Shown here in pieces: positions 2,035 to 61,055 of a stretch of 64,000 nucleotides of DNA. Each line of letters starts with the position of its first letter. Position 1 is the first letter of the stretch. Location of the stretch: positions 1-64,000 of the IMG/VR virus record IMGVR_UViG_3300036790_000265; one strand, written 5' to 3'. The stretch comes from a virus (taxonomy: Duplodnaviria > Heunggongvirae > Uroviricota > Caudoviricetes). The notes beneath the pieces were generated by a model that was not told where the DNA came from, searched no databases, and saw only the letters and a list, made by a program, of their open reading frames with translations. Position numbers and translations under genes: made by a program.

Positions 2035-3033
2035 GTGAGTGATCTTGAAATCGTTCCGCACAGCGACCTCGCCGCAACATCCGCGACACCACTGCGGCGC
2101 CGCGACGAGAACCCGTACTGGGTGTACCTCGCACGGTTTAGAGGCGAGTCCGAGCGCACCATGCGACGGTGCCTCGACCGGATTGCGGCGATCATCCTCA
2201 GCCGCTCCCCCGCCGACCCTGAACATGATCTTGGTGAGCAGATCCCGTGGGAACAGATCCGCTACGCCCACGTGGCCCGGCTCCGGTCCGAGTTCGCGGT
2301 GCAGTGGCAGTCGCCCAGCAGCGCGAACAAGCACCTGTCCGCGCTGCGCGGCGTACTCCACGAAGCGTGGCGACTCGGGCTGATGACCGCTGAGGACTAC
2401 CAGCGGGCCATCGACGTCGAGAACGTCAAGGGCAGCCGCCTGCTGGCCGGCCGGAACATCCACGCCGACGAGACCACCGCCATGCTCCGCGTCTGCCTGG
2501 CCGACGAGAACGCCCCGCTCGGCATCCGCGACGCCGCACTGGTCGCCGTGCTCCAGTCCACCGGCATCCGCCGCGCTGAGGCCGCAGCCGCGCTGATCGA
2601 GCGGTACGACCCCGGTGAGCGTGGGCTCAAGCTTGTCGGCAAGGGCAACAAGGAACGGATCGTGTTCATCCACCCGGGCGCGGTTCCCTACCTGGATGGG
2701 TGGCTTGTCCTGCTCGGTGTACGCCGCGGCGCGATGTTCCGGCGCGTCGACCGGTGGGGCAACATCGGTGCTGAGCGGCTGAGTGCGCGGGCGATCGGCT
2801 ACATCGTCAACCATCGCCGTGAGCAGGCCGGGCTGCCGAAACTCTCAACGCACGATTTTCGCAGGACTTTCATCGGCGACTTCATCGATGCCGGCGGTGA
2901 CCTTGTGCAGGCGCAGAAGCTCGCCGGGCACGCGTCGGCCACGACTACGGCCGCCTACGACCGGCGCCCAGACCGCGCGCTGCGTACGGCTGTGGACAAA
3001 CTGAGCCTGCCCCCGAGGGAGAAGCTCCGATGA
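2035..3033 (+). CDS. tyrosine recombinase / integrase (XerC/D-like)
   Basis: C-terminal catalytic box LSTHDFRRTF...LAGHASATTTAAYDRR (R..HxxR..Y). Confidence 0.85.
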   Translation: MSDLEIVPHSDLAATSATPLRRRDENPYWVYLARFRGESERTMRRCLDRIAAIILSRSPADPEHDLGEQIPWEQIRYAHVARLRSEFAVQWQSPSSANKHLSALRGVLHEAWRLGLMTAEDYQRAIDVENVKGSRLLAGRNIHADETTAMLRVCLADENAPLGIRDAALVAVLQSTGIRRAEAAAALIERYDPGERGLKLVGKGNKERIVFIHPGAVPYLDGWLVLLGVRRGAMFRRVDRWGNIGAERLSARAIGYIVNHRREQAGLPKLSTHDFRRTFIGDFIDAGGDLVQAQKLAGHASATTTAAYDRRPDRALRTAVDKLSLPPREKLR

Positions 3034-8277: not shown

Positions 8278-9045
8278 TCAGGCCGCCTTGAGGCAGGGCA
8301 GGACCGGGATGGCCTCGGCCAGCCAGTTACCAGGCTCGGCCGCGAACCGGGGAGCTGGCATCGGTAGCCAGTGCGCCCACGGCAAATCGGTCTCGGAGGT
8401 GATACGGCGGCAGATGCGGCCGCGGCGGGCCCCTTCCGGGTAGTCGTTCCAGTTGATCCCGGCTTCCTGCCACAGCAGCTCTTGCATCTGGTCGCCGTTC
8501 AGGCCGTGGAGCCGGCTGTGCGAGAAGCAGGCTTGGGCGGCCATCGCGATCGAGTTCCGTACCGCGTCGCGTTGCCGCCACAGGAAGTAGTTCGCCACCT
8601 CGACCGCGCTGGGGATGGTGAACACCCGCCCGTCGAACATGGCCGGATGCGGCGGCAGCGCTTGCACCAGGCCGGGGATGGTCCGGGCGCGGTCGTTGAA
8701 CGTTGCGGTGGCCAACGCGGCGGCCGACGACGCGATCTTCTGGACGTTCCCGCCGAACCACGGTTCGGTTTGGAAGGTGGCGAAGTCGGTGAGCAGCAGC
8801 GACACTTCGTCGGATTGCTGGTAGGAGAACACGGTCCCGCTGATCTGCGAGCACAACGCGACAGCAACCAGGTTGATCGCCTGCATGACCCCGTAGTCGA
8901 ACGGGCGTTTAGCCTGGCGCAGGTAGGTGTGGAACGCGCGGCCGTCGACGCGGATGATCGTGTAGGTGCGGCGTGGAAGCACCTGCCGGGTTGGGGTCTC
9001 GTAGGCCTTCATACGGTCGCCGAGGGCTGTGCTGTCACTGCTCAA
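8278..9045 (-). CDS. Thg1-like protein (tRNA-His guanylyltransferase family, 3'-5' nucleotidyl polymerase)
   Basis: YTIIRVDGRAFH, QQSDEVSLLL and FDGRVFTIPS...YFLWRQRDAVRN align with Thg1 motifs VVVRLDGRNFH, GQSDEYSFVF and FDGRVVVYPS...YLSWRQADCH. Confidence 0.8.
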   Translation of the reverse strand: MSSDSTALGDRMKAYETPTRQVLPRRTYTIIRVDGRAFHTYLRQAKRPFDYGVMQAINLVAVALCSQISGTVFSYQQSDEVSLLLTDFATFQTEPWFGGNVQKIASSAAALATATFNDRARTIPGLVQALPPHPAMFDGRVFTIPSAVEVANYFLWRQRDAVRNSIAMAAQACFSHSRLHGLNGDQMQELLWQEAGINWNDYPEGARRGRICRRITSETDLPWAHWLPMPAPRFAAEPGNWLAEAIPVLPCLKAA

Positions 9046-10236: not shown

Positions 10237-11409
10237 CTACTCTCCCTTAACGTTCACGATCTGCCGCAGCGTGTGCACGACCTCAACGAGGTCGGCCGCG
10301 TCGGCCATCACCTGATCGACTGGCTTGTAAGCGCCGGGGATCTCGTCCAGGAACGCATCGCTGTGCCGCCATTCGATGCCCTCCATTGCGGTGTCGAGCT
10401 GCTCGCGGGTGAACGTCTTGCGGGCCGAGTTGCGGCTGTGCATCCTGCCAGCACCATGCGGCGACGAGTTGAGTGCCAGCCGGTTTCCCTTTCCCCGCAC
10501 GACGTACGAGGCGGTGCCCATCGAGCCGGGAATCAGGCCCGGCGTGCCGTCGCTGGCGTCGATCGCGCCCTTGCGGCTCAGCCAGACTTTCTTGCCAAAA
10601 TGGGTCTCCTGCTCCGTGTAATTGTGGTGACACTGCACCGCCTCCAGGCCGGTGACCGGCATGCCGGTCCAGGCGTCCAGGCACAGAAGGACGCGGTGCA
10701 TCATCTCCTGCCGGTTCAGCAGGGCGAAGTGCTGCGCCCAGCGCAGGTCGCGGATGTAGGCCCAGAACTCGTCGTCGCCCTCGACCAGGTAGGCGAGGTC
10801 TGGGTCGGGGAGGCTGATCCACCGCTTCTTGCACTGCTGCTGGGCGATCTTGATGTGGCGCATGGCGAGCTTGTTGCCGACGCCGCGCGAGCCGCTGTGC
10901 AGGAACGCCCAGACGTGGCCGTGCTCGTCGAGGCTGATCTCGATGAAGTGGTTCCCGCTGCCCAGCGAGCCGAGTTGCAGCCGCCAGTTCGGGGCGATGG
11001 CCTCCGCGCTGGCCGCGCCATCGCCGAACTCCTCCAGGTCGGCGATCCGCTGCTCGGTCGCGGCGCCGAAGACGGCCTCGTTGTAGACGCCGACCGACAG
11101 CGGGATGGCCTGCTCGATGGCCTCGCGCAGCCTGCTCAGGTGCGGCAGCCCGCGCACGTCCGCAGCGGTCAGGTGGGTGCGCACGGCATGCATGCCGCAG
11201 CCGATATCGACGCCGACCGCTGCCGGCATGATCGCACCGAGCGTCGGGATCACGCTGCCCACGGTCGCGCCCTTACCGAGGTGCGCGTCCGGCATCAGCG
11301 CGATGTGCGGGTGGATGAACGGCATCGTCGACGCCAACTCGGCCTGGGTGCGCGTGTTCGGCTCCAGGATCGACGCCCAGTTGATCAGGCGTTTCGTGAT
11401 CTGCTCCAT
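10237..11409 (-). CDS. rtcB: RNA-splicing ligase RtcB (3'-phosphate/5'-hydroxyl RNA ligase)
   Basis: Near full-length colinearity with E. coli RtcB: MPDAHLGKGATVGSVIP, VGVDIGCGM, GSGNHFIEI, HSGSRGVGN, CHHNY, PGSMG, HGAGR. Confidence 0.95.
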   Translation of the reverse strand: MEQITKRLINWASILEPNTRTQAELASTMPFIHPHIALMPDAHLGKGATVGSVIPTLGAIMPAAVGVDIGCGMHAVRTHLTAADVRGLPHLSRLREAIEQAIPLSVGVYNEAVFGAATEQRIADLEEFGDGAASAEAIAPNWRLQLGSLGSGNHFIEISLDEHGHVWAFLHSGSRGVGNKLAMRHIKIAQQQCKKRWISLPDPDLAYLVEGDDEFWAYIRDLRWAQHFALLNRQEMMHRVLLCLDAWTGMPVTGLEAVQCHHNYTEQETHFGKKVWLSRKGAIDASDGTPGLIPGSMGTASYVVRGKGNRLALNSSPHGAGRMHSRNSARKTFTREQLDTAMEGIEWRHSDAFLDEIPGAYKPVDQVMADAADLVEVVHTLRQIVNVKGE

Positions 11410-20114: not shown

Positions 20115-20486
20115 TCACTCGACCGCCTCACACGACTTGCAGATCCACCGGTCCGGGTCGTCCAGATCGCGTCGGCAGGTGCGCCGCTCCTCGCAGCACC
20201 AGCAGAGCTGATTGCGCTTCTCCTCCCGCCCCGGCAGCGGCTCAGGCCCAGGCTCGGGCAGTGGGACCGCACCAACGCGCTCGCGGTAGATCGCCCGCAC
20301 CGCCTCGTCCCGCTCAGCCAGCGCCGCCACCAGATCGGCCTCCGAGAGGTCCGTCGCGACCTGCCGGAGCATCGGCCCGAACTCGGCCACACACTGCGGG
20401 CACGGGCTGGCCGGTGAGTCTGACTGGTTCCGGCAGCCGGGGAGTGCACACTCGGCGAACAGAACGAGCTGGCCGACTTCCGTCAT
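20115..20486 (-). CDS. zinc-finger-rich hypothetical protein
   Basis: Multiple CxxC pairs. Confidence 0.4.
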   Translation of the reverse strand: MTEVGQLVLFAECALPGCRNQSDSPASPCPQCVAEFGPMLRQVATDLSEADLVAALAERDEAVRAIYRERVGAVPLPEPGPEPLPGREEKRNQLCWCCEERRTCRRDLDDPDRWICKSCEAVE

Positions 20487-21304
20487 GCTGCACTCCAATC
20501 CAGGCCAAGGGAGTCCTGCTCGCCGACCGTGACAAGCCGCGACAAGAGGTCGGCGCGCCACTGGGAGGCGTAGATCAAACAATTGGCGCAGTTCTTGTGC
20601 GTGTGGCCGGGTAGCGGCGGGTTACGCCGCGCCTCATAGCTCCAGGCCATCGAGTCGGCCGAGATGAGCTTGTGCCCAAACGACCGCAATCCCTGGGTCT
20701 TCACCCCGAACGCGTGCACCGCATACTCGGGGGTCAGGGCCTCGATCAGCATGCTGATCCGCGCGGTCCCCTGCCGCCGGCACACCGACCCGACCCCGAC
20801 AACCGGATAGTCCGCCAGCTTCACCCCGGCCGCGGCGTACAGGTCAGCGCAGCGGAGGTATTCGCCGATCGTCCAGCCCTGCAACACGGGCATGAACGGG
20901 CACTCGCTGTCGCTGTACGCAGGCCAGAGGTTCACGAGCTGGAGGAAGTTCTCAACTGTCCGCCGCTGGTGCTCACCAACGCTCAGGTGGGTACCGGGGC
21001 AGCCCGCGCCGCCCTGGATGATCCACGGCTCGCACATCCAGTCCTGCGGCGCTGCCCACTCCAGGTGCCCGATCTCAGTGTCGTAGCGGGCCACGGCCGC
21101 GCAGTACTCGGCCGGGGTGGTGCGCCACTCCCCGAACTTGGACAGTTCGGTGAAGCCGCCGCTGTCGAGCGCCCAGCCGTGTGTGGACGGCTGGAAGGTC
21201 TTGTAGCGGGACAGCGCGCGGTGGCCAACGAACATCGGGAAGTCGGCGGCGGGGGTCCACAGCCAGTGGGGCTGGTGGGAGCCGAGGTAGAAGTGGCAGG
21301 TCAC
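20483..21304 (-). CDS. TGT-superfamily transglycosylase-like protein (tRNA-guanine transglycosylase / DpdA-like)
   Basis: WALDSGGFTE matches the TGT active-site motif LTDSGGFQV; VVGVGSV matches MGVGKP; CxxC near the C terminus. Confidence 0.5.
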   Translation of the reverse strand: MTCHFYLGSHQPHWLWTPAADFPMFVGHRALSRYKTFQPSTHGWALDSGGFTELSKFGEWRTTPAEYCAAVARYDTEIGHLEWAAPQDWMCEPWIIQGGAGCPGTHLSVGEHQRRTVENFLQLVNLWPAYSDSECPFMPVLQGWTIGEYLRCADLYAAAGVKLADYPVVGVGSVCRRQGTARISMLIEALTPEYAVHAFGVKTQGLRSFGHKLISADSMAWSYEARRNPPLPGHTHKNCANCLIYASQWRADLLSRLVTVGEQDSLGLDWSAA

Positions 21305-25421: not shown

Positions 25422-25670
25422 TTAGGCGGTGCGGCGGCTGCTGACGGGGAGGCCATTCGGCAGGAACCGGGCTGGGGAGAAGTCACGCGGCTCGGATCCG
25501 GGGGTGTGCGCGAGCTGCACGAGGGAGATCGCGATCTTGCTGTGGACGTGCCCGTTCGTCACGGCCTGGCCGATCACGGCGCGGACTTCCTGCTCGTCCC
25601 AGTCGGGGCGTTCGCTACGGACGTAGGCGACGAGGAGATCGGTGGTGCTCGCGGTCGTGGTCTCGCTCAT
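25422..25670 (-). CDS. hypothetical protein
   Basis: ORF. Confidence 0.4.
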   Translation of the reverse strand: MSETTTASTTDLLVAYVRSERPDWDEQEVRAVIGQAVTNGHVHSKIAISLVQLAHTPGSEPRDFSPARFLPNGLPVSSRRTA

Positions 25671-26449
25671 GCCGCTGACCCAACTTCCGGCTCCGGCAGG
25701 CGCTCCCCCGACGATGTGACCTCGTACAGCACTTCACAGGAGCGGACCTTGACCTTCGTGTTGTCCAGCACGACCACGTCGGCCAGCGCCACCCGGCAGG
25801 CCAGGTAACGCTTTGACGGGGTGTACAGGTAGGACCCGGCGATGCGCGGGTACGGGCTGAGATGAAGGCCGTACCCGCACTCGGTAACCGCACGGAAGTC
25901 AGGTGCCGTGACGGTCTCGCCGATCGGGTACCGCATGCCGTGGCCGGAGACCAGGTTCTCGTCCACGGCCTTGAACAAGGTCATGTGACCGTCCTCAACG
26001 GGGATGCCCTCGAACTCAGCCCACTCAGCAGGGCTCACGGTCTCGGGCACCCGGATGATCTGGCCACCAGTGATCTTCGGCCGGTTCGTGTGCTGGTAGA
26101 CGGTCGCGTACTTCGCGGCGGTGACGGTGCCGTCGTAGGCGTGGACGACTGCGGTGCCTACGGCATGCACGCTGCCGGAGCCGGTCACCCGCCCCACGCT
26201 GCCGGAGCCGTCCACCCACTCCACGCGGCCGGAGCCGTCCACCCACTCCACGCGGCCGGAGCCGGTCACCCACCCCACGCGGCCGGAGCCGGTCACCCGC
26301 CCCACGCGGCCGGAGCTGATTTCCCTGACGTATCCGGTCACGATGTGCAGGCATGCGCCCGGGTCGTTCTTGTGCTGGTCGTACTCGGTTTGGTTGTGGA
26401 TTTCGATGCAATTCACGCTGAGAGTTCCTTCGTTTTCGAGGGGTGACAT
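25667..26449 (-). CDS. hypothetical protein with nonapeptide tandem repeats (SGRV[GE][RW]V[TD]G x6)
   Basis: ORF; internal 27-bp DNA tandem repeats. Confidence 0.5.
   Translation of the reverse strand: MSPLENEGTLSVNCIEIHNQTEYDQHKNDPGACLHIVTGYVREISSGRVGRVTGSGRVGWVTGSGRVEWVDGSGRVEWVDGSGSVGRVTGSGSVHAVGTAVVHAYDGTVTAAKYATVYQHTNRPKITGGQIIRVPETVSPAEWAEFEGIPVEDGHMTLFKAVDENLVSGHGMRYPIGETVTAPDFRAVTECGYGLHLSPYPRIAGSYLYTPSKRYLACRVALADVVVLDNTKVKVRSCEVLYEVTSSGERLPEPEVGSAA
26174..26320. repeat. 27-bp direct tandem repeat, about 5.5 copies (gccggagccgKYcacccRcYccacgcK), in-frame inside the CDS
   Basis: Read directly from sequence. Confidence 0.85.
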
Positions 26450-27354
26450 TTCGGGCAGGGGCCGAGGTCCCGGCCGTCGTCTTGGGCTTGGCGACGACGG
26501 CTTGGTTCGTGGCACTCACCGCACCAAGGCGGCCGGGCCGGGCCGGGGAGCGCGAACCGGGTTACCGGGTCCGCGTCGGCTTCGATCGCTGCGCGGCAGT
26601 ACGCGGCGGGATCGTTCGGTTTGCGGCGGCCGAGGATAGTCCGGGCGATCTTCGCGGCGGTGTCAGCGTCGATGCTGCGGCCGGTGGTTTCATCGATCGT
26701 TTCGATGATCGTTTTCAAAATCAGATCATCATCGGTTGAACCGTTCTCGGCGTAATGGCTGGTGTGAGATCTGACTGATGGATCTGTGGATCTTTTAGGT
26801 TCGGATCTGGATCTGGATAGGGCGATTGGCTGGCGATCGGTATGTGACCGCTCGGAGCGATCGGTATCCGATTCACTATCCGATCGCATACCGATAACTG
26901 ACCGATCACTAGCGGGCGGGCAGTACGGACAGTTCGGGTTGGTGTGGCCGTCCGTATGCCACCTGCGGTGGTTGCCCAGCTTCCCGCCGTCCGATTTGGC
27001 TGCTATCGCGTTGGCCTGCGCCGTCGTCGCCTCAGCCTTCGTCGGATGCAACCAGAAGTAGTCGTGGATGACCCACCCGTCCACGTCCACCGGAGCGGGG
27101 CAGTCCGGTGACGGGCATTCGTGCCGGGCGTCATGCCACACCCCGCGTTGTGGTCGCGCGCACTCGGCCGCGAGCTTCGCAGGCTGACGTAGCCGGGGCA
27201 CCACCAGGGCCACGTCGTCGCGTGGGATGACACCATCGGTGCCGTTGGCGCGGCACCAGAAGATCGCGGTCGTGTGCAGGCGGAACGCGGCGTCCGACAG
27301 CCCGGCAACCTTCCGGTTGAACGGGAACTGGTCATCGAACGGGACCCAGGACAT
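26413..27354 (-). CDS. hypothetical protein (possible replication initiator), central low-complexity SDSESDTDRSERS region
   Basis: ORF; contains an AT-richer iteron-like segment at 26700-26900. Confidence 0.45.
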   Translation of the reverse strand: MSWVPFDDQFPFNRKVAGLSDAAFRLHTTAIFWCRANGTDGVIPRDDVALVVPRLRQPAKLAAECARPQRGVWHDARHECPSPDCPAPVDVDGWVIHDYFWLHPTKAEATTAQANAIAAKSDGGKLGNHRRWHTDGHTNPNCPYCPPASDRSVIGMRSDSESDTDRSERSHTDRQPIALSRSRSEPKRSTDPSVRSHTSHYAENGSTDDDLILKTIIETIDETTGRSIDADTAAKIARTILGRRKPNDPAAYCRAAIEADADPVTRFALPGPARPPWCGECHEPSRRRQAQDDGRDLGPCPKCHPSKTKELSA

Positions 27355-28934: not shown

Positions 28935-29804
28935 TCATGCGGCGACCGCCGCCCGTTGCCCCGTGCGCCGCAACGCAGCCTGGAACGCGTTCTTGCCGAC
29001 CCTCAGCCGTTCCCGGGCCTGATCCCGCGTGTATCCCTGCGCCAGCAGCTCGGCGGCGTCCTCGGCCACGTCAGCCGCCCGGCGGGTGCGCCGGCCTGTC
29101 GGCTTCCAGCCTTCGGCCGGCCCGGCCGAGGGGTCATCGATGGTGTCGTCGTCCCACGCGAGCGGCGGCACCCACCCCCGCGCAGCCGCGTAGTTCCGCG
29201 CGTAGGACATCGCTGTCCGCTCGGCTCGTGTCCGCTGCGGCGGCGGCTGATCCCACAGCCGGTCGTAGAGCTCACGGACAGCTCGTGCCAGGGAGGCGGT
29301 GACGATGCCGCTCCGAACCGATCCACGGAGCCGTTCTTCCGGGCGACCCAGATACGCCGCTAGGACGGACTGGGGGTAGCCGACCGCTACGAGGGCCTGG
29401 ATACGGCGGACGGTACCGGCCGGTTCGACCCGCGCCCGGTAGCCGTAGGCGTTCAGCGTCGGCTTGACCGCGAGGATTCTGGTGGCAGTCTCGACGCGGA
29501 CCCGCTTAGCCGGGCCCATGATGTAGATAAGGCTGGACTGGGATAGTCCGGTCAGGGCGGACAGGCGCCCTTGGCTGATGCCAGCGGCGTCCAAGGCCAG
29601 GACGTGGTCGCGGACTGGTCCCGCGTCCGTGTAGGTGTTCCACCGGCCGTACGCCTTGGCTCGAATCCGCCGGTCCCGGGCGGCAGCCTGAGCGGCCCTG
29701 CACGGATCGCAGCGGCACCCGCGGCCTCGGATCCGGCCCGGTTCGGGGCCCCACGTGTAGCAACCGGTAGTGCCGTGCTGGCGGTAGGTGGGAGGCGCGC
29801 TCAT
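28935..29804 (-). CDS. HTH DNA-binding protein with N-terminal Cys cluster (289 aa)
   Basis: LSALTGLSQSSLIYIMGPAKRVRVETATRIL looks like an HTH; CYTWGP..CRCDPC; long N-terminal Arg/Pro extension rejected as a frame artefact. Confidence 0.45.
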   Translation of the reverse strand: MSAPPTYRQHGTTGCYTWGPEPGRIRGRGCRCDPCRAAQAAARDRRIRAKAYGRWNTYTDAGPVRDHVLALDAAGISQGRLSALTGLSQSSLIYIMGPAKRVRVETATRILAVKPTLNAYGYRARVEPAGTVRRIQALVAVGYPQSVLAAYLGRPEERLRGSVRSGIVTASLARAVRELYDRLWDQPPPQRTRAERTAMSYARNYAAARGWVPPLAWDDDTIDDPSAGPAEGWKPTGRRTRRAADVAEDAAELLAQGYTRDQARERLRVGKNAFQAALRRTGQRAAVAA

Positions 29805-32800
29805 GCGGTGGCCTCCGGGGTGTGGAGTATGGCCCGCAGCCGTGCCCCGATCCACTGGCCGACCTGCGGTGTGACGCCGTTGCCGTATCCGTCGACCTGG
29901 TCCCGCGCGCTGCCCCATACGACGAAGGAGCCTTTGTAGCCGTAGCCGGGGAAGTCGACGTCGAAGCCGCAGCCCCGGCCGACCTCGTGGGGACCCAGCA
30001 TCTTGAAGTACCAGTCCTCGAGTGGCAGGTCCCTGAGGGCTGCGGTGAGCAGCGCGGTAGTGTCGCGGCTGGTGAGCGTGCCGAACGGGTCGCTGACCGG
30101 GTGTGGCGCGGTGGCGTCGCTGCTGCGGCCGTTCTGTTTGAACCAGCCGGAGAACAGCGCCCCCTGCGTGATGGCCGAACCGACCACGGTGCCCAGCGGG
30201 TCGCTGAGCGGGTGGGTCCGGTACTTCGCCTCGTCGATCGAGCCGTTGTTCTTGATGGTGCCGCCCGCCGTGAGCAGGCCGAGCGTTTGACTGGCGGTTA
30301 CCGCAGGCATTGGGTCGGCCGGGCCGACTGGAGCGCTGGCCCGGCGAAGCGGGACAACGCCAGACGACAGGACACCGAGGCCGCCCGAGCCAGCGCCGCC
30401 GACGAGGGTCTGCATGGGCTCGGTCACGCTGCGGCTTGTGCCGTTGGTGCGGTTCGGCAGAATCCGCGCGGTCAGCAGGCCGAGGGTTTCCGAGCCGCCT
30501 TGCGTTGGCAGGGGCTCGTCTGCGCCGCGGGGGGAACCTTGGTAGTTGTCCACGGCAACTGCGATGGGGGGCGTCATCAGGCCTGTGGAGTTGGTTCCGG
30601 TTTGTGCCCACAGCGGCTGGTCGAGGCCGCGTGAGCGGCAGTTCGAGCCGGGCCGTTCGAAGGTGTGCCCGGCGGCGCCCATGATGACGCCAGTCGAGGC
30701 GATGAGGGCGGCCTTTTCGTGGGTGGTCGTCACGGTGTCCATCGGCCGGGTGATGTGCTGGCCGTCGCCGTTGTGACGGTGCGCGGGGACGACCGAGCCA
30801 GTCATGGCGACACCGGCAGTCTGGGATGTCATCGGCTGCCACGGGTGTCCGCCCGGGCCGGTCACGGCCGAAGCGGGCATCAGGACGAGAGGGAACTCGG
30901 CGGCCCGCTGGCGGCACCGTTCGGCACGCTCCATCGTCGAGGCGGCCAGCGGCTTGGCCCGGTCACCGATCCGGGTGCCGAGGTTGGTCAGGTCCAGCGC
31001 GTCCAGCGACGGGGACATGGGGGGGATGACCTCGGCGCGGCACCTCGGGCAGCGGTAGTCGTACTGTTCGCCGTAGCACACCTTCCCTGTGGCCGGGATG
31101 CCTGTACGCCAGGTCCAGACGGCTTCGACGACCTGATCGCAGCGGCTGCACCACGAGGGGGGCCGGTGTTCAAGGTCGGGCTTGGGCAGGCGCCGGTCCC
31201 AGAAGACGCCGAACCACCGGTTCCGGGACTGGGGCACTCCAAAGAACATCGAGTTCAGGTACAGGATCTTGTAGTCGTAATTGAGTTTGGTGAACTGCTT
31301 GAGCCACCAGCGGTAGGTGGAGCCGTCGCCGACCTTCCGCCGGCCGGGGATCGCTGGGCCCCAGGACTGGATCTGGGTGGTGCACTCGACGAGGATCAGC
31401 CGCGGGTGGTGGCGTTCGGCGTAGTGCAGGACGCAGTTATGAACGATCAGCCCATCGGCGACGAAGCTGTGATCCTCCTCCACCTCGATGTCGAAAACCT
31501 GGGCTTGGCGATTCTCGTCAATCACCTCGCGAACGACACCTACACACCGGCCGTTGATCGTGGCGATGGTTGATGTGCGGCGCTGCTGGGCCATCCACTG
31601 CAAGATCCACGCCGGGCGGGTGATGCCGGATCGGCCTTCGATGGTCCACTGCTCAGGCTTCCGGCAGCGGAGCGTCGGCCGGTACCCGAGACCCTGCAGG
31701 AGAAGTTTCATCCCGATCGCGAGTTTCCGGCTGACCGTGGCGCACGATCCTCGCCGACCGCCGAGGCCGGTCGCGCCATCGGCGGACAGATAACCTTCGA
31801 CTAGCGCCTTCCGGTATTCCTCGTCCATGCTCAGCGCCCACGCGGGAATCGTCTTACCGTGGGCTAGTTCGCCGAAGTGCTCCATCAGCCACCGGGCGAA
31901 CGGCCCGCTGCCACGCAGTTCGTAGCGGATTATGGTGGGGTCCTCATGGACCCGCGCAGCGGCCCACATGCCGTCGAGTTCCGCGCGCTCGGCGTGGCCG
32001 CAGCAGATGCCAACCATTACTCCGGACGGAGAGCAATGCCGGATCCATCCGTCGCCGAGCCACCGGCCGACAGTCCACCAGAAGTGATGGTCGTAAGCCC
32101 ACCCGTTAGGAGCAGGCGGAACGGCGCACTCCGGGAATTCGGTCGGCGACTGCCATGCATGGCCAATCAGATCGGCGGCGGCCGTCCAGTCCTCGGCACC
32201 GCTGAACACCCAGCCACGCCGGGTTAGCTCAGATGCCCGGGTCAGGAACTGGTGATCGGCAGTCACCTCGAGGGCGGTGTGCCCACGGCCCTTGACAGTG
32301 ATCACGCGGGAGCGGCGAGACATCGTGGCTGTCACTCGCCGCCACCGGTTCCGATGTGTTAGAACTTCGTCCCCGGCCGCCAGCTCCTCGATGGGGACCA
32401 TGCCACGTCGCGCCACCACGATGGTTCCTGCCGGGAAGCAGTTGGCGGTGGCCCGGTCCCGCTCGGAGCGGGTCACCCGCGCGTCGAAGTCCGGATCGTC
32501 GAGGTCGAACAGTGACAGCCTCTGCTCGTACGCCTTGATCGTGTTCGCCTGGGAATGGTTGACGCAGCTGACACCTGCGACCAAGAGATCGGCGGCGGGC
32601 AGATCGCGAGCGGAGTGGTAATCCGACGAGTCAGGGTCAACGAGGTCTGCGATCCAGTGTTCGGCGTGCGGGTGGTTGGCCTCGTGCACCTCGACTTTGT
32701 ACGCGTTGTGGTTGGCCGCCATGATCGTTGTGAAGCCGGCCATCTCGATGCCGCGAGTCAATCCACCGAAACCGGAGAAAAGATCAACGGCGATCAGGTC

Positions 32801-32857
32801 ATCGTGGGCGAACCTGCGACGGCGAGCGGCCGGCCGGTGCTCAGCAGTTCGCGTCAT
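29801..32857 (-). CDS. C5 DNA cytosine methyltransferase, intein-containing, large multi-TRD variable region
   Basis: Motif I DLFSGFGGLTRG; motif IV region DLLVAGVSCVNHSQA (SC in place of PC); motif VI LILVECT; motif VIII GVPQSRNRWFGVF; RxLxxxExxxMLG...FD..FP; C-terminal GNGVTPQVGQWIG (motif X). Confidence 0.8.
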   Translation of the reverse strand: MTRTAEHRPAARRRRFAHDDLIAVDLFSGFGGLTRGIEMAGFTTIMAANHNAYKVEVHEANHPHAEHWIADLVDPDSSDYHSARDLPAADLLVAGVSCVNHSQANTIKAYEQRLSLFDLDDPDFDARVTRSERDRATANCFPAGTIVVARRGMVPIEELAAGDEVLTHRNRWRRVTATMSRRSRVITVKGRGHTALEVTADHQFLTRASELTRRGWVFSGAEDWTAAADLIGHAWQSPTEFPECAVPPAPNGWAYDHHFWWTVGRWLGDGWIRHCSPSGVMVGICCGHAERAELDGMWAAARVHEDPTIIRYELRGSGPFARWLMEHFGELAHGKTIPAWALSMDEEYRKALVEGYLSADGATGLGGRRGSCATVSRKLAIGMKLLLQGLGYRPTLRCRKPEQWTIEGRSGITRPAWILQWMAQQRRTSTIATINGRCVGVVREVIDENRQAQVFDIEVEEDHSFVADGLIVHNCVLHYAERHHPRLILVECTTQIQSWGPAIPGRRKVGDGSTYRWWLKQFTKLNYDYKILYLNSMFFGVPQSRNRWFGVFWDRRLPKPDLEHRPPSWCSRCDQVVEAVWTWRTGIPATGKVCYGEQYDYRCPRCRAEVIPPMSPSLDALDLTNLGTRIGDRAKPLAASTMERAERCRQRAAEFPLVLMPASAVTGPGGHPWQPMTSQTAGVAMTGSVVPAHRHNGDGQHITRPMDTVTTTHEKAALIASTGVIMGAAGHTFERPGSNCRSRGLDQPLWAQTGTNSTGLMTPPIAVAVDNYQGSPRGADEPLPTQGGSETLGLLTARILPNRTNGTSRSVTEPMQTLVGGAGSGGLGVLSSGVVPLRRASAPVGPADPMPAVTASQTLGLLTAGGTIKNNGSIDEAKYRTHPLSDPLGTVVGSAITQGALFSGWFKQNGRSSDATAPHPVSDPFGTLTSRDTTALLTAALRDLPLEDWYFKMLGPHEVGRGCGFDVDFPGYGYKGSFVVWGSARDQVDGYGNGVTPQVGQWIGARLRAILHTPEATA
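31436..32440 (-). mobile_element. intein (about 335 aa) with LAGLIDADG-type homing-endonuclease motifs, inserted between MTase motifs IV and VI
   Basis: Begins ...ATAN|CFPAGTIVVARRG, ends ...FVADGLIVHN|C; internal WLGDGWI and YLSADGATG blocks. Confidence 0.7.
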
Positions 32858-33516
32858 GCCCGGTCTCCTTTGACCCGGCTGACGCGTGAGTCGGCGGCGT
32901 CGTAGCCGCCGAACGGAGTCCGGTTGGGGACATGCCGGTTACCCGGCGACTCCCGGTGGGTGCGGATCGGGCCACCGGCTTCCAGCCACCCAGGCGGGTA
33001 GACCGCGGTGACCGTCTCGACCCAGTGGGCGAGAGCCTTCGCCCCCTGCCTGCCGGCCGTGTCCCTGGGCAAACTCGCGACGACCGGCAGGTCCCGCCAG
33101 CCGGGCCACGCGTGGTCGAGCCCGGCGGCGGCGGCTTCGCTCTCGTCTCCTACGGGGTCGCCTTCCCAGTTACAGGCCGGATGGAGGCAGCAGCCCCGGT
33201 AGCGCTCGTACCTGCCGATCTCGTGGGTGCAGCCGACAGGCGGGTCGCCCCGGTAGGGGTTGGCGGTGTCTGCGGAGAGGACGGTCACCTGGCATCGGTC
33301 AGTGGGCTTGTCCGGGCAGGTGATGTAGACGGTCCAGGCGTGCGCCCTGGCCGCCGCGCTGCTAGTGCCGTACTCGGCCGCCCACGCTTCCAACTCAGCC
33401 GCCCGGGCGGCCAGGCCACGGGCAGGCGATGCGTACAGGCACGGCGCGGGCTTGTCTTGTTTGGCCAGCTCGAGTGCTTCGAACAGGTCGATCTGGCCGT
33501 CTAGCTGGGCGGTCAT
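32854..33516 (-). CDS. hypothetical protein
   Basis: ORF. Confidence 0.4.
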   Translation of the reverse strand: MTAQLDGQIDLFEALELAKQDKPAPCLYASPARGLAARAAELEAWAAEYGTSSAAARAHAWTVYITCPDKPTDRCQVTVLSADTANPYRGDPPVGCTHEIGRYERYRGCCLHPACNWEGDPVGDESEAAAAGLDHAWPGWRDLPVVASLPRDTAGRQGAKALAHWVETVTAVYPPGWLEAGGPIRTHRESPGNRHVPNRTPFGGYDAADSRVSRVKGDRA

Positions 33517-33640: not shown

Positions 33641-33919
33641 TCACTGGGTCGCCGCCGATCCGGCCAGCGCGGCGCGGCCGGCTTCCATCAGTTCGTTGCC
33701 GCGTTTACAACTCGTGGCGTGGAGGATCATGTTGAGCAGGCCGAGTTCGGTGGCGTCCGGGCCGAGGTTGGGCATCGGCGGTGCGGCGCGCATGCCGCGT
33801 AGCTTGCTGCCGACGCCCTTGCGCAGGGTTGAGGCTTCGGCGCCGCACCGGCACCGGATACCAGGGGTGCCGTGCTTGTCGCGGACGATCAGCAGCGGAA
33901 GGACGGTGAAGTCGCTCAC
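33641..33919 (-). CDS. hypothetical protein
   Basis: ORF. Confidence 0.35.
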   Translation of the reverse strand: MSDFTVLPLLIVRDKHGTPGIRCRCGAEASTLRKGVGSKLRGMRAAPPMPNLGPDATELGLLNMILHATSCKRGNELMEAGRAALAGSAATQ

Positions 33920-34410
33920 GGCACCCTCACCGGCCTTGTAGCTGCCGACTTGGCGTGCCGGTCATGCAGCAGGATTGAGCCCGCGCATGCGACGTTCATT
34001 GACTGCGAGACGACCGTCTCGACCTGGGTCAGGTAGTGACACTGGTCGAGTACCGAAACAGGCAGCCCGTGGTCTTCCGCGCCGAGTAGGTAGCACGCCC
34101 GTTCCGGGTGCACGAACGACGCGAGGTGTTCGGCGCGCGGGTCGAGTTCGACGCCGACGAGCGGGCACGACCACGGCAGGTGCGTGACCAGGTCGTCCAA
34201 GTCGGTGAAGTGGAACATCGGGGTGCGCTGCGGGGTGTCGATCGTGTCGCTGGCCTGCCTGGTATAGCGGTGGCCGACCGTGAACACGAACGCGCAGTCG
34301 AACAGGAACGCTGACCGCCACAGCGACCCGACGTTGATCTTGGTCTTCGGATGCCAGATGCCGATCGCGGCGAAGCCCCGGCCAGCTCGGGCGTAGGTGC
34401 GGCGGGTCAC
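33916..34410 (-). CDS. SPOUT-superfamily RNA 2'-O-methyltransferase (SpoU/TrmH/TrmL-like)
   Basis: GFAAIGIWHPKTKINVGSLWRSA (motif 1) and LLGAEDHGLPVSVLDQCHYLTQVETVVSQSMNVACAGSILLHD (motifs 2-3, trefoil-knot SAM site). Confidence 0.7.
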   Translation of the reverse strand: MTRRTYARAGRGFAAIGIWHPKTKINVGSLWRSAFLFDCAFVFTVGHRYTRQASDTIDTPQRTPMFHFTDLDDLVTHLPWSCPLVGVELDPRAEHLASFVHPERACYLLGAEDHGLPVSVLDQCHYLTQVETVVSQSMNVACAGSILLHDRHAKSAATRPVRVP

Positions 34411-49047: not shown

Positions 49048-51183
49048 ATGAACAGCCGCTGGCACGACCACGACAACGATCAAGACGACGATCAGGCTGA
49101 GCCGCTGCCGCCGCCGCGGAGCGAGCTTCGGGCGCTCGTCGACCAGCACCGCGCCATCCTCACCCCGTTCGCGTGGATGGCCGCGGCCGAGCTGGTCGCG
49201 CTGACCGCCTGGGGGGTCCTGCACGGACTCGGCAGCCTCCTCCAGGTGATCATCGCTGCCGTGGTCGCGCGGCTGATCATCTGGCGGCGGACCCGGAGCC
49301 GCAGGAAGGGACACGGCAGCCGGACTCTCGTCTGGGCTCTCGGGTCGGCGTGGATGCTGATCGCGACGGTGGTCGGCCCGAGCCTGGTCGGCCAGCTCGT
49401 CCTGCTCGTCCTGCTCGTGTTCGGTGGCTCTATCGCGTCGGCGAAGCACTGGCTCAACAACCGGGTGCACCACACCGGACCGCGCACCCTCCGCGGCGAC
49501 ACCATCGACGACGAGGTCCCACCCGCTGACGATGACGTACCCGGTCGGCCTGTGCTGCATGTGGTCGCCGGGGAGCCGTACTCGAACCCGGTCGTACCCG
49601 CCGCCGGACCTGTACCCGCGAGCGCACCTGCGGGTGCACCCGGGACCGTACCCGCACCCGAACCTCCCTCGGGTGCGGGTACGGTCCAGACGGCCGGGTA
49701 CACCGCACCCGGGACGGGTGCGCTCAAGCCAGGTACGGCCCCGAAAGCACGCACATCGGCGTCGGACAGCATCCGCGAAGCGATCCAGACCGTACTCGAC
49801 GACTTCCAGGTGTCCGCCGACGTGTCGGGGTACGTCCGCGGCCCGGCGGTCACCCGGTACGAGATCGTCCCGGCTCCGGGGGTCAAGGTCGAGAAGGTCA
49901 CCGCCTTGTCCAAAAACATCTCGCTCGCGGTGAAAAGCGGCGCCGTGCGGATCCTGTCCCCGATCCCGGGGAAGTCCGCGATCGGGATCGAGATCCCCAA
50001 CACTGACCGTGAAGTAGTCAGCCTCGGTGACATCCTCCGCTCTCCCCTCGCGGCCTCTGACCATCACCCGCTGCTGGTCGGGCTAGGCAAAGACGTCGAA
50101 GGGCACGTGGTGGTGGCCAACCTCGGGAAGATGCCGCACATCCTGATCGCCGGCGCGACCGGCGCGGGCAAGTCCACCTGCATAAACACGTTGATCGTTT
50201 CCCTGCTGGCCAGGGCCACACCTGAGGAGTTGCGGCTGATCCTGATCGACCCGAAGCGGGTCGAGCTGGCCGCCTACCAGGGTGTGCCGCACCTGCTGAC
50301 CCCGATCGTCACCAACCCGAAGAAGGCCGCTGAGGCGCTGGAGTGGGTAGTCGGCGAGATGGAACGCCGCTACGACGCGATGGCCAGGCACGGGGTACGG
50401 AACATCACCGAATTCAACGTCAACGCGGGCAAGGGCATCCTGGTCGACCGCGAGACGCACAAGCCGGTCAGCCCGTACCCGTATCTGCTGGTGATCGTGG
50501 ACGAACTCGCCGACCTGATGATGGTCGCGCCGCGGGACGTGGAGGATTCGGTCGTCCGGATCACCCAGCTCGCCCGGGCGGCCGGCATCCACCTGGTGCT
50601 GGCCACCCAGCGGCCCAGCGTGGACGTGGTGACCGGCCTGATCAAGGCGAACGTGCCGTCGCGGCTGGCGTTCACCACTTCCAGCCTGGCGGACTCCCGC
50701 GTGATCCTGGACCAGCCCGGCGCGGAGAAACTTGGCGGCCAGGGCGACGCGCTGTTCCTTCCGATGGGTGCCAGCCGGGCGATCCGGCTGCAAGGCGCGT
50801 TCGTGAGCGACGACGAGATCGCGGCGGTTGTGCGCCAGTGCATCGCCCATGCGCCCCGGATGCCGCAACTCGAGCTCGTACCCGAGCCGGTACCAGTCAG
50901 CGGCCCGGCTGAGGCGCCGGTGGATGACACCGAGGTGGAGTTGCTGGCCACGGCGGCCGAACTGATCATCAGTACGCAGTTCGGTTCGACGTCGATGTTG
51001 CAACGGAAACTGCGGGTCGGGTTCGCGAAGGCTGGGCGGCTGATGGACCTGCTGGAGTCGCGGGGGATCGTCGGCCCGAGCGAAGGCTCCAAAGCTCGCG
51101 ACGTACTCAAACTGGCCGAGGAAGCTGCCGAGGTGGCTGATCGCATCCGGGCCGGCGAACCCGAGGTCAGGAGCGCAGGATGA
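49048..51183 (+). CDS. FtsK/SpoIIIE-family DNA translocase (Streptomyces TraB-like)
   Basis: N-terminal TMs; [19 protein letters not shown]; [12 protein letters not shown]; [15 protein letters not shown]; C-terminal gamma wHTH. Confidence 0.9.
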
Positions 51184-56197: not shown

Positions 56198-57166
56198 TCA
56201 GGCCGCCTCTGGCTGCTCGGCCGCGGCCTGAGCGAGGCGGGCGGCGGTCGCGGCCTTGGTCTCGGTGTAGACGGTCGCGGCGACGTAGTGCGTGCCGGTG
56301 TCTTCCCGGTACACGCAGGCGCCTTCGACGCCGGCCGGGATGGTGAGCACGGGCCAGGTCCCCTGCGGGTCCACGGTGACCGCGACCGGGTCGAGGTCGG
56401 TGCCGTGCCAGTTCACCGACAGCGACGCGGACGGGAACGTGCCCGAGGAGCCGAACACGGTCGTGAACCGGATCGCGTTGGCGCCGTCTGGGATGGCGAT
56501 GGGCGTGGGGGTGCCCTTGGGCAGTAGCAGCATGGTTGGCTCCTCCTGGTCGAGCACGGCAAACGGAATGGACGGCGGCGGTGGCGGGTCGGTGTGGGTC
56601 TCCGTGTAGGTGGCGAGCCAGGCGCGCAGGTCGTCGACGGTGCCGTTGAACACGTCGAGATCGACGGGGCCGCTGATCGAGTACTGCCAGAACCGCCACG
56701 TCTTCCACGGCCCGACCGGGCCTGGTGGGACGTCACCTGGCCACGTGGCCCACAGGTCATATCCGCCGCAGGACCACAGGCCCTTGGCGACCGACAGGTC
56801 GGTGTAGACGAGGACTGGGCAGTGTGGACCGGCCAGGTACGCGGTCCGGTCGCAGAACGCCTTGACGGAGGTGTCGGTGACTCCCGGGTAGTCCGACGCG
56901 ACGACCGCGAGCATGTCACCCGGGCGCAGGCCCCGGGCTTTGACCGTGGCGACGAAGAAATCCGCCTGGGCTTCGGCTGACGCGTCGGTGAGTTCGTGGT
57001 AGGCGCCGCGGGGGATGTTGGCGCGGGCGATACCGGCCCAGTTGTCGGTGAACTTCTCGTCGACGTAGTCGGGTCCGTTGGTGGCCTTGCACCATCCGAA
57101 GTTCTCGCCGGCCCAGGTGGTGACTGCCTGGTAGTCGGACCGGTCTTGACCGTGTGCGCTGGTCAT
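56198..57166 (-). CDS. GH25 muramidase (endolysin LysA-like) with C-terminal domain
   Basis: GQDRSDYQ...CKATNGPDYVDEKFTDNW...GAYHEL matches GH25 DxSxxQ / KATEG / YHF motifs. Confidence 0.75.
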   Translation of the reverse strand: MTSAHGQDRSDYQAVTTWAGENFGWCKATNGPDYVDEKFTDNWAGIARANIPRGAYHELTDASAEAQADFFVATVKARGLRPGDMLAVVASDYPGVTDTSVKAFCDRTAYLAGPHCPVLVYTDLSVAKGLWSCGGYDLWATWPGDVPPGPVGPWKTWRFWQYSISGPVDLDVFNGTVDDLRAWLATYTETHTDPPPPPSIPFAVLDQEEPTMLLLPKGTPTPIAIPDGANAIRFTTVFGSSGTFPSASLSVNWHGTDLDPVAVTVDPQGTWPVLTIPAGVEGACVYREDTGTHYVAATVYTETKAATAARLAQAAAEQPEAA

Positions 57167-57183
57167 GGGCACCTCCTCGGGGG

Positions 57184-58029
57184 TCACGCGGAGCATTGGG
57201 CGCCGACCGACTGGAGCGCGGCCAGCGCGGCGGCAGGAGGCGGGAAGACGTATTCGTGTTGGCTGCCTTCACCGCCTTGCCCCCAGAACGTGGCGATCAA
57301 GGTCCCGTTGCGGCTGGTCAGCCAGTCCCAGCAGGAGGTGAACCAGCCGCCGGTCGGGTCAATGCTGTTGGTTTCGCTGATGGCCGGGCGGGCGTCCGGG
57401 GCGACGGTCAGGATGTCTTGCCACGCCTGCCCGAACACGGCCTCGGGGGTCGAGTTGCCGTCCGGGTCGTAGCCGTCCATCGAGTACCAGCCCAGCCCAG
57501 GGCAAATCCACGGCGTGACGTCCTGACCAGCCCGGACCGGACTCGTCGAGATGCATTCGCCGTACAGCACGCCCGGGTTGACCTGCTGCACCAGGTTGTG
57601 CAGGTACCCGTGCAGGTCGGTGAGCTGGGCAGCGGACGAACCGGACAGCGATTGGTACGGGCCACCTGGCCGGTTCGCTTCCTGCCAGCCGGTCAGCCAC
57701 GACCCTTCCGGGGCCTGCTCGATGTAGGCGCTCAACTGCGACTTGAGCGTCCCGGCCAGGGTCATGGCCGGGTCCGGGTCGAAACACACCAGCGCGGTAG
57801 CCCCGGCCGGGACCGGGTTAGCCGGGTTACCAGGCCATTTCACGGGGACGCCGTTGCCGCTGCTGTCGGCGAACACCTTCACCCAGGTCAAGCCGTCCAG
57901 CGACGGGGAAACCGCGGCGTAGGCGGTCAGGTTCACCCCGAACGGGACCCGGACGCTCGCCGACGCTTCCGCGGTCGAGGAGGTGCCGGCGGCCGGGTCG
58001 TCGACCTGGACTGGGACGGTGAGGATCAC
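57184..58029 (-). CDS. hypothetical protein (possible hydrolase)
   Basis: ORF. Confidence 0.4.
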   Translation of the reverse strand: MILTVPVQVDDPAAGTSSTAEASASVRVPFGVNLTAYAAVSPSLDGLTWVKVFADSSGNGVPVKWPGNPANPVPAGATALVCFDPDPAMTLAGTLKSQLSAYIEQAPEGSWLTGWQEANRPGGPYQSLSGSSAAQLTDLHGYLHNLVQQVNPGVLYGECISTSPVRAGQDVTPWICPGLGWYSMDGYDPDGNSTPEAVFGQAWQDILTVAPDARPAISETNSIDPTGGWFTSCWDWLTSRNGTLIATFWGQGGEGSQHEYVFPPPAAALAALQSVGAQCSA

Positions 58030-60781: not shown

Positions 60782-61055
60782 CAGCGACCCGGCGTGGTGT
60801 GCCTGCACCCCCTGGACGGCGGTCACCGCAGGCCCCCGTCCGCCAGCGCGACCAGGAGCGCGGCGGACTGGTCGCGGCGGGCCGCGGCGAGGATCTTGTG
60901 TGCGGTGGTTTTGGCCCGCCGGAACCCCGTGCTCTCTGTGCGGCCCGGGTGGTCGGGGATATCTACGGTCCAGGAGTGGTCTTCGTGTTCGGTGTGCACG
61001 CCGCCGCCCGGCTTGTGGCTGGCCGGGCCGCCTGGGCACCGGCAGGTCGCATCAT

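Follow-up and report, generated by a model that had tools for sequence, protein, structure and literature searches.

A C5-cytosine methyltransferase gene with an intein and eight variable-region modules on an actinobacterial mobile element

We analyzed a stretch of 64,000 nucleotides (positions 1 to 64,000 of the IMG/VR virus record IMGVR_UViG_3300036790_000265, Caudoviricetes; hereafter the window), in which one open reading frame (ORF) of the complementary strand encodes a C5-cytosine methyltransferase (C5-MTase) homologue that is interrupted by an intein and carries eight short modules in its variable region. Judging from the conservation of its catalytic residues, we consider it likely that this gene yields, after splicing, an active C5-cytosine DNA methyltransferase protecting the DNA of the element on which it resides. 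Two of its catalytic motifs depart from the consensus, and it shares both departures with a large subfamily of related proteins.

Gene layout and catalytic core

The ORF is divided as follows, in positions of the window, where (-) denotes the complementary strand:
29801-32857 (-), whole ORF, stop codon counted in, encoding a precursor of 1018 amino acids (aa; 111.5 kDa)
32441-32857 (-), N-extein, aa 1-139, with motifs I, II, III and IV, ending in ...SERDRATAN
31436-32440 (-), intein, aa 140-474 (335 aa, 37.5 kDa)
29804-31435 (-), C-extein, aa 475-1018, whose first residue is the +1 nucleophile Cys475 (CVLHYAE...)

Removal of the intein (CFPAGT...IVHN) from the ORF translation leaves an extein of 683 aa. 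The Pfam DNA_methylase profile (PF00145 / IPR001525) matched aa 24-108 of the ORF with an E-value of 5.5e-17 (62.6 bits against a cut-off of 22). A preliminary description of the gene had read it as an intein-interrupted C5-MTase with the order I-IV-(intein)-VI-VIII-variable region-IX-X, and this reading was confirmed by the Pfam and NCBIfam profiles together with the alignment of homologues. AlphaFold2 (AF2) was run twice, with 76 close sequences and then with 117 diverse sequences, and the predicted local distance difference test (pLDDT) score of the catalytic domain rose to >90 with the diverse alignment. In a Foldseek search of the first AF2 model, the core matched DNMT1, MET1, M.HaeIII and M.HhaI with E-values of 1e-10 to 1e-12. 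These models place the methylase core in the class I methyltransferase fold of the C5 type.

The motifs of the extein and its cysteine-rich insert are located as follows:
32762-32779 (-), motif I FSGFGG, the S-adenosylmethionine (SAM)-binding FxGxG
32705-32719 (-), motif II variant AANHN, with Asn-His replacing the ribose-binding Glu of M.HaeIII; universal in the wider clade
32552-32575 (-), motif IV GVSCVNHS, with the catalytic Cys98; Val replaces the Pro of the clade's P-x-C
31376-31399 (-), motif VI LILVECTT, with Glu retained and Cys-Thr replacing Asn-Val
31211-31234 (-), motif VIII PQSRNRWF (QxRxR)
31034-31150 (-), zinc-ribbon-like Cys4 insert CxxC...CxxC, aa 570-606, almost unchanged throughout the clade and in a high-confidence part of the model
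29948-30010 (-), motif IX region YFKMLGPHEVGRGCGFDVDFP, aligned with FRMLEPREI..DFP of Gordonia phage Madeline gp61
29867-29890 (-), motif X GYGNGVTP (GN[A/G]V), with Asn retained

The unusual residues of motifs IV and VI, reported in the preliminary description as SC for PC and ECT for ENV, are real and not errors of alignment. HMMER paired AGVSCVNHS of the methylase with GGPPCQSWS of M.HaeIII, and hhalign paired LILVECTT with both FFVFENVK of M.SPRI and VIVENV of Madeline gp61. The first of the two nevertheless had to be reworded: Ser-Cys is present, but the parent clade has P-x-C, so that the change is [V/I]-S-C replacing P-[E/S]-C. Among the 120 closest proteins, motif IV reads G[VI][ST]C.NH in 119 and motif VI reads ECT in 118. 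The same columns in 97 distant representatives hold Pro (94), Glu or Ser (65 and 22) and Cys (94) in motif IV, and Glu (96), Asn (93) and Val (94) in motif VI. The replacement of the motif IV Pro by Val or Ile and that of the motif VI Asn-Val by Cys-Thr are fixed together in 20/20 members of the subfamily, compared with Pro in 94/97 and Asn in 93/97 of the wider clade. From these comparisons, the odd residues appear to be fixed, coupled traits of a large subfamily and not private to this gene. The Ser preceding the catalytic Cys is itself common in the wider clade (PSC). It is also found in Schizosaccharomyces pombe Pmt1, a Dnmt2 family member with a PSCQ motif IV which is an active enzyme (PMC3526270). 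What the two share is a Ser immediately preceding the catalytic Cys, and Pmt1 is active in spite of it; Pmt1 differs in being a tRNA methylase with Pro at position -2 and an ENV-type motif VI, and there is no close kinship.

By contrast with these replaced positions, the catalytic Cys, the motif VI Glu, QxRxR, FxGxG and GN(A/G)V show little or no variation in the 120 close homologues and the 97 distant representatives, and both Arg residues of motif VIII were unchanged in 117/117 sequences. Selection thus maintains the catalytic residues.

More than 1,236 homologues of the extein were found at E<=1e-5 in a set of metagenome and genome proteins, nearly all of them about 650 aa long and without an intein. 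Homologues with a name are called 'DNA cytosine methyltransferase' (Micromonospora, Amycolatopsis, Mycolicibacterium, Streptomyces, Nocardioides, Xylanimonas and others), and they sit on actinobacterial plasmids, prophages and chromosomes. Plasmid members are 50-64% identical to the extein, for example those of Gordonia bronchialis pGBRO01 (WP_012836505) and of an M. intracellulare plasmid (WP_089152528), and phage relatives annotated as 'DNA methylase' (Gordonia, Mycobacterium, Arthrobacter) show about 29% identity over 94% of the extein. When 1.84 billion cluster representatives were searched exhaustively, 396 clusters matched at E<=1e-30, and Madeline gp61 proved to be a full-length homologue (hhalign, 485 columns, E 1.7e-45). 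At the nucleotide level, the gene had no match in 50,697 phage records, and an identical protein was found on one metagenomic contig (8.8 kb) only.

The alignments indicate a clade signature made of P-x-C, the Asn-His of motif II, C-x-N-H-S past the nucleophile and the Cys4 insert after motif VIII. With the methylases of actinophages and plasmids, the window gene shares the motif II Asn-His, C-x-N-H-S, an ERxRAT segment, the Cys4 insert, tandem modules of the TL type (named after the Thr-Leu dipeptide) and the orphan status. The actinophage members differ by P-E-C or P-S-C and ENV, where the subfamily of the window gene has [V/I]-S-C and ECT, and the window gene is further set apart from this clade by its maximal set of eight modules and its intein.

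Modules of the variable region

Between motifs VIII and IX, the variable region consists of an array of modules, numbered from the N-terminal side:
30035-30853 (-), array of eight TL-type modules, aa 669-941
30779-30853 (-), module 1
30680-30778 (-), module 2
30557-30679 (-), module 3
30464-30556 (-), module 4
30362-30463 (-), module 5
30263-30361 (-), module 6
30146-30262 (-), module 7
30035-30145 (-), module 8

The modules are 25-41 aa long (about 35), with a head (D/E)P(M/L)xT(V/L/Q) and a tail (A/G)L(L/I), and they are statistically real repeats. A regular expression for the head pattern found 8 copies, where 20,000 shuffles gave 0.41 on average and never more than 5, and a hidden Markov model (HMM) built from module 8 only detected module 7 at 15.3 bits, where the best of 300 shuffles reached 7.1. 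Gly, Pro, Ser, Thr, Ala, Gln and Asn make up 60% of the module region. The preliminary description had counted at least three copies of a TLGLLTA-like element in this region. The three strings are indeed present (aa 791-798, 858-866 and 926-940), but the modules number eight: modules 4 and 6 end in the two TLGLLTA strings, and GTLTS..TALLTAA corresponds to module 8. The canonical place of the TL dipeptide is the head of the module (GTLTS in module 8) and not the interior of TLGLLTA.

We then typed the modules with HMMs and obtained 22 architectures among 121 proteins. Blocks 4, 7 and 8 are near-universal (117-121 of the 121 proteins), and blocks 2, 3, 5 and 6 were found in 88, 108, 70 and 108 proteins, respectively. 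Block 2 either precedes or follows block 3, block 5 is duplicated in one protein, and the window gene has the complete 12345678 set. At the other end stands the homologue P0248 (834 aa), with two or three modules left (blocks 6 and 8) and without blocks 1-4 and 7; as its variable region is cut down to this extent, most modules would be dispensable for catalysis if P0248 is active. Where modules are present, their residues are conserved at 0.82, compared with 0.84-0.87 in the core. Arrays of the same kind are found in Pseudomonas phage Lana gp71 (eight such modules) and in Madeline gp61 (five), which makes the array a feature of the clade; the whole clade, enzymes of 500 aa from phages included, has 4-9 modules. 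Taken together, the architectures suggest that modules have been gained, lost, swapped or duplicated as cassettes, and this cassette-like behaviour probably reflects a broadened or multiple sequence specificity.

The preliminary description had also assigned the gene to the SPR/phi3T type of multispecific phage methyltransferases, and we therefore retrieved M.SPRI, M.Rho11sI and M.H2I for comparison. The likeness in layout holds: M.SPRI, M.Rho11sI, M.H2I and M.Phi3TI have a single catalytic core followed by several contiguous short (P)T(L/I/V) modules, and the window gene has contiguous TL-type modules between motifs VIII and IX. The target-recognition domains (TRDs) of SPR, rho11s and H2 also have the same generic form (G-L-S-P-T-I/L-T-T...G..K-I-A/S-V) and the same size as these modules. 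However, homology does not extend past motifs I-VIII. Only these motifs aligned between the extein and M.SPRI (hhalign, 160 columns, E 4.6e-11), with no hhalign alignment of the TRD regions, and the module HMMs of the window family gave no match on the TRDs of SPR, rho11s or H2; the same HMMs matched the modules of Lana and Madeline weakly. In the absence of detectable homology past the catalytic domain, the likeness to SPR is an architectural analogy and not family membership. The Bacillus phage enzymes are likewise orphan, borne by mobile elements and presumed to act against restriction. They differ from the window gene by their canonical PCQ and ENV and by having neither a Cys4 insert nor an intein, and multispecificity is proven for them.

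What the eight modules do can be read in two ways. It is quite plausible, although we would stop short of calling it probable, that the enzyme is monospecific or relaxed in its specificity, the modules being structural repeats (hairpins) which together form one large DNA-binding surface and whose number tunes affinity or site length. The presence of blocks 4, 7 and 8 in nearly all the proteins typed, the 4-9 modules counted throughout the clade, phage enzymes of 500 aa included, and the small size of modules rich in Gly, Pro, Ser and Thr, unlike autonomous domains, are all consistent with such a surface, and AF2 folded no single module confidently. An obligatory composite fold is harder to square with whole modules being absent or reordered, and with P0248, in which blocks 1-4 and 7 are missing.

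The second reading, which we regard as possible but more tentatively, is that of a true multispecific methylase in which all or most of the modules recognize targets of their own, as in M.SPRI, M.Phi3TI and M.Rho11sI, so that one catalytic core would act on several unrelated sites. The generic form and size shared with the TRDs of SPR, rho11s and H2 point in this direction, as does the loss, gain, swapping and duplication of modules that leaves the rest of the protein undisturbed, down to the two or three kept by P0248, and so does the conservation of module residues at a level like that of the core. A single TL element is present in well-studied monospecific enzymes such as M.HhaI and Dcm, and three of them accompany the three specificities of SPR, a relation that would favour the same reading. 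Phage multispecific enzymes also contain inactive pseudo-TRDs, however, so that the number of modules suggests, but does not measure, the number of specificities. The lack of detectable homology to SPR-type TRDs also speaks against independent recognition domains, and the near-universal blocks fit a composite scaffold equally well.

The intein and its sites within the clade

The conserved parts of the intein are the following:
32246-32272 (-), block B LEVTADHQF (TxxH), read directly from the sequence
32042-32071 (-), first LAGLIDADG motif VGRWLGDGWI, conserved in related inteins
31772-31804 (-), second LAGLIDADG motif LVEGYLSADGA, conserved in related inteins; LAGLIDADG_3 match at aa 348-404
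31436-31498 (-), blocks F/G VFDIEVEEDHSFVADGLIVHN, with His-Asn as the last residues; matched by intein_Cterm and by RecA intein chains

All the class-1 elements are present: Cys1 (C140, in CFPAGT), TADH at aa 199-202, H473-N474 and the +1 residue C475. The Hint_2 profile matched the intein with an E-value of 4.5e-8 (34 bits against a cut-off of 28.4) and NCBIfam intein_Cterm reached 36.1 bits against a cut-off of 15.6; Intein_splicing (30.8 bits, cut-off 35.8) and LAGLIDADG_3 (19.4 bits, cut-off 22.5) stayed under their cut-offs. RecA intein chains of the PDB matched the intein at E ~1e-4. The alignment with 17 homologues fixes its boundaries exactly, since sixteen of the sequences lack an intein and run without a break through ...SERDRATAN-CVLHYA.... 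The profiles and these homologues thus uphold the LAGLIDADG intein of 335 aa that had been proposed between motifs IV and VI at ...ATAN/C...HN/C (a slash marks the junction).

No intein of any kind is present in 118/120 close homologues and none of the 120 has one at the window's site, all of them reading through RATANC. Its relatives in the protein database are at most 40% identical and lie almost all within C5-MTases. Matches from end to end, at about 30% identity, were found in Propionibacterium phage B22 gp50, a P1-like dmt, Pseudomonas phage Lana gp71, a Mannheimia phage and cluster F mycobacteriophages. The inteins of methyltransferase genes (P1-like Dmt, B22 gp50, Lana gp71 and metagenomic ones) belong to the same clade as that of the window, with CFPAGT...VHN, LAGLIDADG, 30-40% identity, conserved catalytic segments and the +1 Cys; they differ in that nearly all abut the catalytic Cys of motif IV, whereas the window's copy lies downstream. 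C-5 methylases are counted among intein hosts in a 2025 survey (bioRxiv 10.1101/2025.01.02.630785). The methylase inteins of mycobacteriophages Pacc40 (gp60) and Dorothy (gp75) lie in N4/N6 methylases (Gosselin et al. 2023, PMC9957025; Kelley et al. 2016), and we therefore rejected these proteins as carriers of the same extein.

Relatives have their intein nearly always directly before the catalytic Cys (GGSP/C...HN/CQDLS or SPE/.../CTNHS). Within the SC/ECT subfamily, the fragments P0230, P0238 and P0227 are occupied at motif IV (AGVS/CFAAGTLV... and ...VVHN/CVNHSQ), and P0249 and P0250 also have an intein at this site. The window's site (RATAN/C) lies 42 residues downstream of the motif IV site, within the strongly conserved ERxRAT segment. 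It had looked unique, with 0/120 best homologues occupied and no junction-spanning match, until the exhaustive search of representatives returned P0248 and the distant P0286, the only other proteins seen with an intein there. The allelic intein of P0248 is 74.9% identical to that of the window and the extein parts of P0248 are 65-86% identical, so that the intein has diverged along with its host; the allelic intein of P0286 has 38.7% identity. Related inteins are also located just past motif VI (ENVAEA/C...HN/CSWGP) in P0265 and P0279, and motif I holds an unrelated intein in P0020, P0097 and P0315. By these comparisons, the methylase clade is an intein hot spot with four sites, three of them with related LAGLIDADG inteins of the CFPAGT type and one with an unrelated intein.

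We also considered the window's site as an ectopic copy of the motif IV site (CVNHS versus CVLHY) and rejected this candidate, as the two share 16/30 DNA positions, with TGCGTC in common, and other in-frame positions gave 16-18, which leaves the resemblance without significance. The +1 Cys475 (window 31433-31435) is invariant in 20/20 members of the subfamily, those without an intein included, compared with Asp in 58/97 and Cys in 20/97 of the wider clade. This Cys either serves a function or was left behind by an ancestor that carried an intein.

The closest relative of the intein in a word-indexed protein search was found in a metagenomic protein of 578 aa, P0121 (37% identity, E 9e-60). Its host has a primase-polymerase-like N-terminus and is not a methylase, and the junction ...DVADAN/C resembles the ...DRATAN/C of the window. 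An intein may have switched between host proteins in this case.

Genomic context and predicted function

The window is an actinobacterial mobile element. Its left end carries a serine recombinase and a tyrosine integrase, followed by a long leftward block with Thg1, RtcB, a HerA-like ATPase, DpdA, an SPFH protein, a UvrD-like helicase, the methylase, DUF6349, SpoU, DUF5131, an exonuclease and a RecT-like protein; further right lie repressor-like genes, an FtsK/SpoIIIE translocase and a GH25 lysin. The genes with positions are the following:
156-1676 (+) and 2035-3033 (+), serine recombinase and tyrosine integrase
8278-9045 (-), Thg1-like tRNA-His guanylyltransferase
10237-11409 (-), RtcB RNA ligase
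20483-21304 (-), DpdA homologue (PF23859, E 4.8e-102)
25667-26515 (-), ORF with a run of GSGRV(G/E)WV(T/D) peptide repeats preceding a DUF7666 domain
32854-33516 (-), DUF6349 gene
33916-34410 (-), SpoU-type RNA methylase
49048-51183 (+), FtsK/SpoIIIE translocase with gamma domain
56198-57196 (-), GH25 lysin
60877-60958 (+), single tRNA-Gln (TTG), near the right end among opposite-strand ORFs

An FtsK/SpoIIIE translocase with a gamma domain is of the kind used by actinomycete conjugative elements. The window also carries phage-type PHROG families, and no capsid or terminase gene was found among the window ORFs scanned. The element is either a prophage, an actinomycete integrative and conjugative element (AICE) or a hybrid of the two.

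No restriction endonuclease adjoins the methylase in the window or in five other contexts. The neighbours of homologues elsewhere include Mom, an Eco57I-like methylase, PAPS (3'-phosphoadenosine-5'-phosphosulfate) reductase with DpdA, a site-specific methylase and a D12-type methylase. Neighbours of this kind, together with the missing endonuclease, form the pattern of an orphan anti-restriction modification gene.

Other genes of the neighbourhood were recorded in their own right. DpdA is a transglycosylase inserting 7-deazaguanine derivatives into DNA, and its presence in the window means that the element carries a second DNA-modification function. The methylase homologue of contig L012 is flanked by PAPS reductase and DpdA, Mom and an Eco57I-like methylase. 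Thg1, RtcB and SpoU have the look of an RNA repair or modification set, which may be directed against host anticodon nucleases. The DUF6349 gene overlaps the start of the methylase by 4 nucleotides (ATGA), and the same arrangement is found on contig L001. As this gene is missing beside homologues in other contexts, we rejected it as a conserved component of the system, and it is probably not a functional partner of the methylase.

In the reading that we favour, the class-1 intein (Cys1...His-Asn/Cys+1) would splice out of the 111.5-kDa precursor, which would yield a methylase of 74 kDa along with a LAGLIDADG homing endonuclease of 37.5 kDa. Because the intein lies inside the catalytic domain, the precursor should be inactive until N139 and C475 are joined. 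The mature enzyme would follow the standard C5 chemistry, in which Cys98 attacks C6, Glu491 protonates N3, and Arg545 and Arg547 hold the flipped base, with SAM as the methyl donor and 5-methylcytosine on the element's own DNA as the predicted product. The eight TL-type modules and the Cys4 insert would recognize the target, and the methylation would shield the element from host restriction after entry or induction.

Several observations weigh against this picture. Both the Pro of motif IV and the Asn-Val of the ENV motif are absent, and reduced or altered activity is possible. The NCBIfam TIGR00675 profile scored 66.4 on the methylase, under its cut-off of 100.65. The literature searched held no activity data for any member of the clade and no characterised SC/ECT variant. 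The module region had a pLDDT of 25-55 in both AF2 runs, the canonical module 8 included; since the counterpart of module 8 is folded in every solved C5-MTase, this low score argues for a failure of the model and is not evidence of disorder. Finally, the GC content at third codon positions is 0.76 in the intein and 0.87 in the C-extein, and this lower value, together with the divergence in step of intein and extein from those of P0248, suggests that the homing activity may be old.

The replaced residues of motifs IV and VI could also signal an altered chemistry or substrate, namely a non-methyl C5 adduct, another cofactor, or an RNA or single-stranded DNA substrate. Their joint fixation leaves two cysteines in the active site, as in the RNA m5C methyltransferases, the PSC-type Pmt1 is an RNA methylase, and Thg1, RtcB and SpoU are carried by the same element. 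We nevertheless judge such a change highly improbable, as every residue needed for standard C5 methyl transfer is conserved, the neighbours in other genomes are DNA-modification genes, and no hydroxylase, TET, glycosyltransferase or cofactor-synthesis partner is conserved in the contexts examined. The Asn of motif X is also retained, and it is the change of this Asn to Lys that confers carboxymethyl transfer in M.MpeI and M.MedI (PMC12015181). The non-canonical C5 adduct raised in the preliminary description thus found no positive evidence, with the catalytic and SAM motifs and the motif X Asn kept and no hydroxylase or transferase partner conserved nearby. A combined version, in which a rebuilt pocket with a two-cysteine mechanism or a product or substrate other than 5-methylcytosine is joined to up to eight separable cassettes, is likewise very unlikely. 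A catalytically dead relic kept as an intein vehicle or a DNA-binding protein would agree with the non-consensus motifs IV and VI and the TIGR00675 score under threshold, but is scarcely probable: strong purifying selection has kept the catalytic Cys, Glu and Arg and the SAM motifs both in distant representatives and in over 100 sequences of 59-87% identity, and most family members have no intein.

Each part of the favoured methylase is of a known kind, whether the C5-MTase itself, an intein in a methylase or tandem TRD-like modules. The literature searched held no description of their combination, in which a subfamily has [V/I]-S-C and ECT, cassette-like arrays reach eight modules and one methylase clade has inteins at four sites. 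The coupled, fixed replacement of the near-universal Pro-Cys and Asn-Val in more than 100 otherwise functional-looking proteins offers a natural experiment in what C5-MTases require for their mechanism. Related inteins at three sites and an unrelated one at a fourth, within one methylase clade, make a clear case in which to study the movement of inteins between sites of a gene. If the modules are independent TRDs, this widespread family of actinobacterial plasmids and phages would provide the first large collection of natural multispecific C5-methyltransferases beyond the SPβ group of Bacillus phages, and the natural cassette swaps would let modules be mapped to sequence motifs; should the rebuilt pocket with eight cassettes prove true, the enzyme would be the most multispecific base-modifying enzyme known. 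On the same premise of independent TRDs, such a mapping would shed light on the way in which mobile elements get past the restriction barriers of GC-rich Actinobacteria, Streptomyces and mycobacterial plasmids included.

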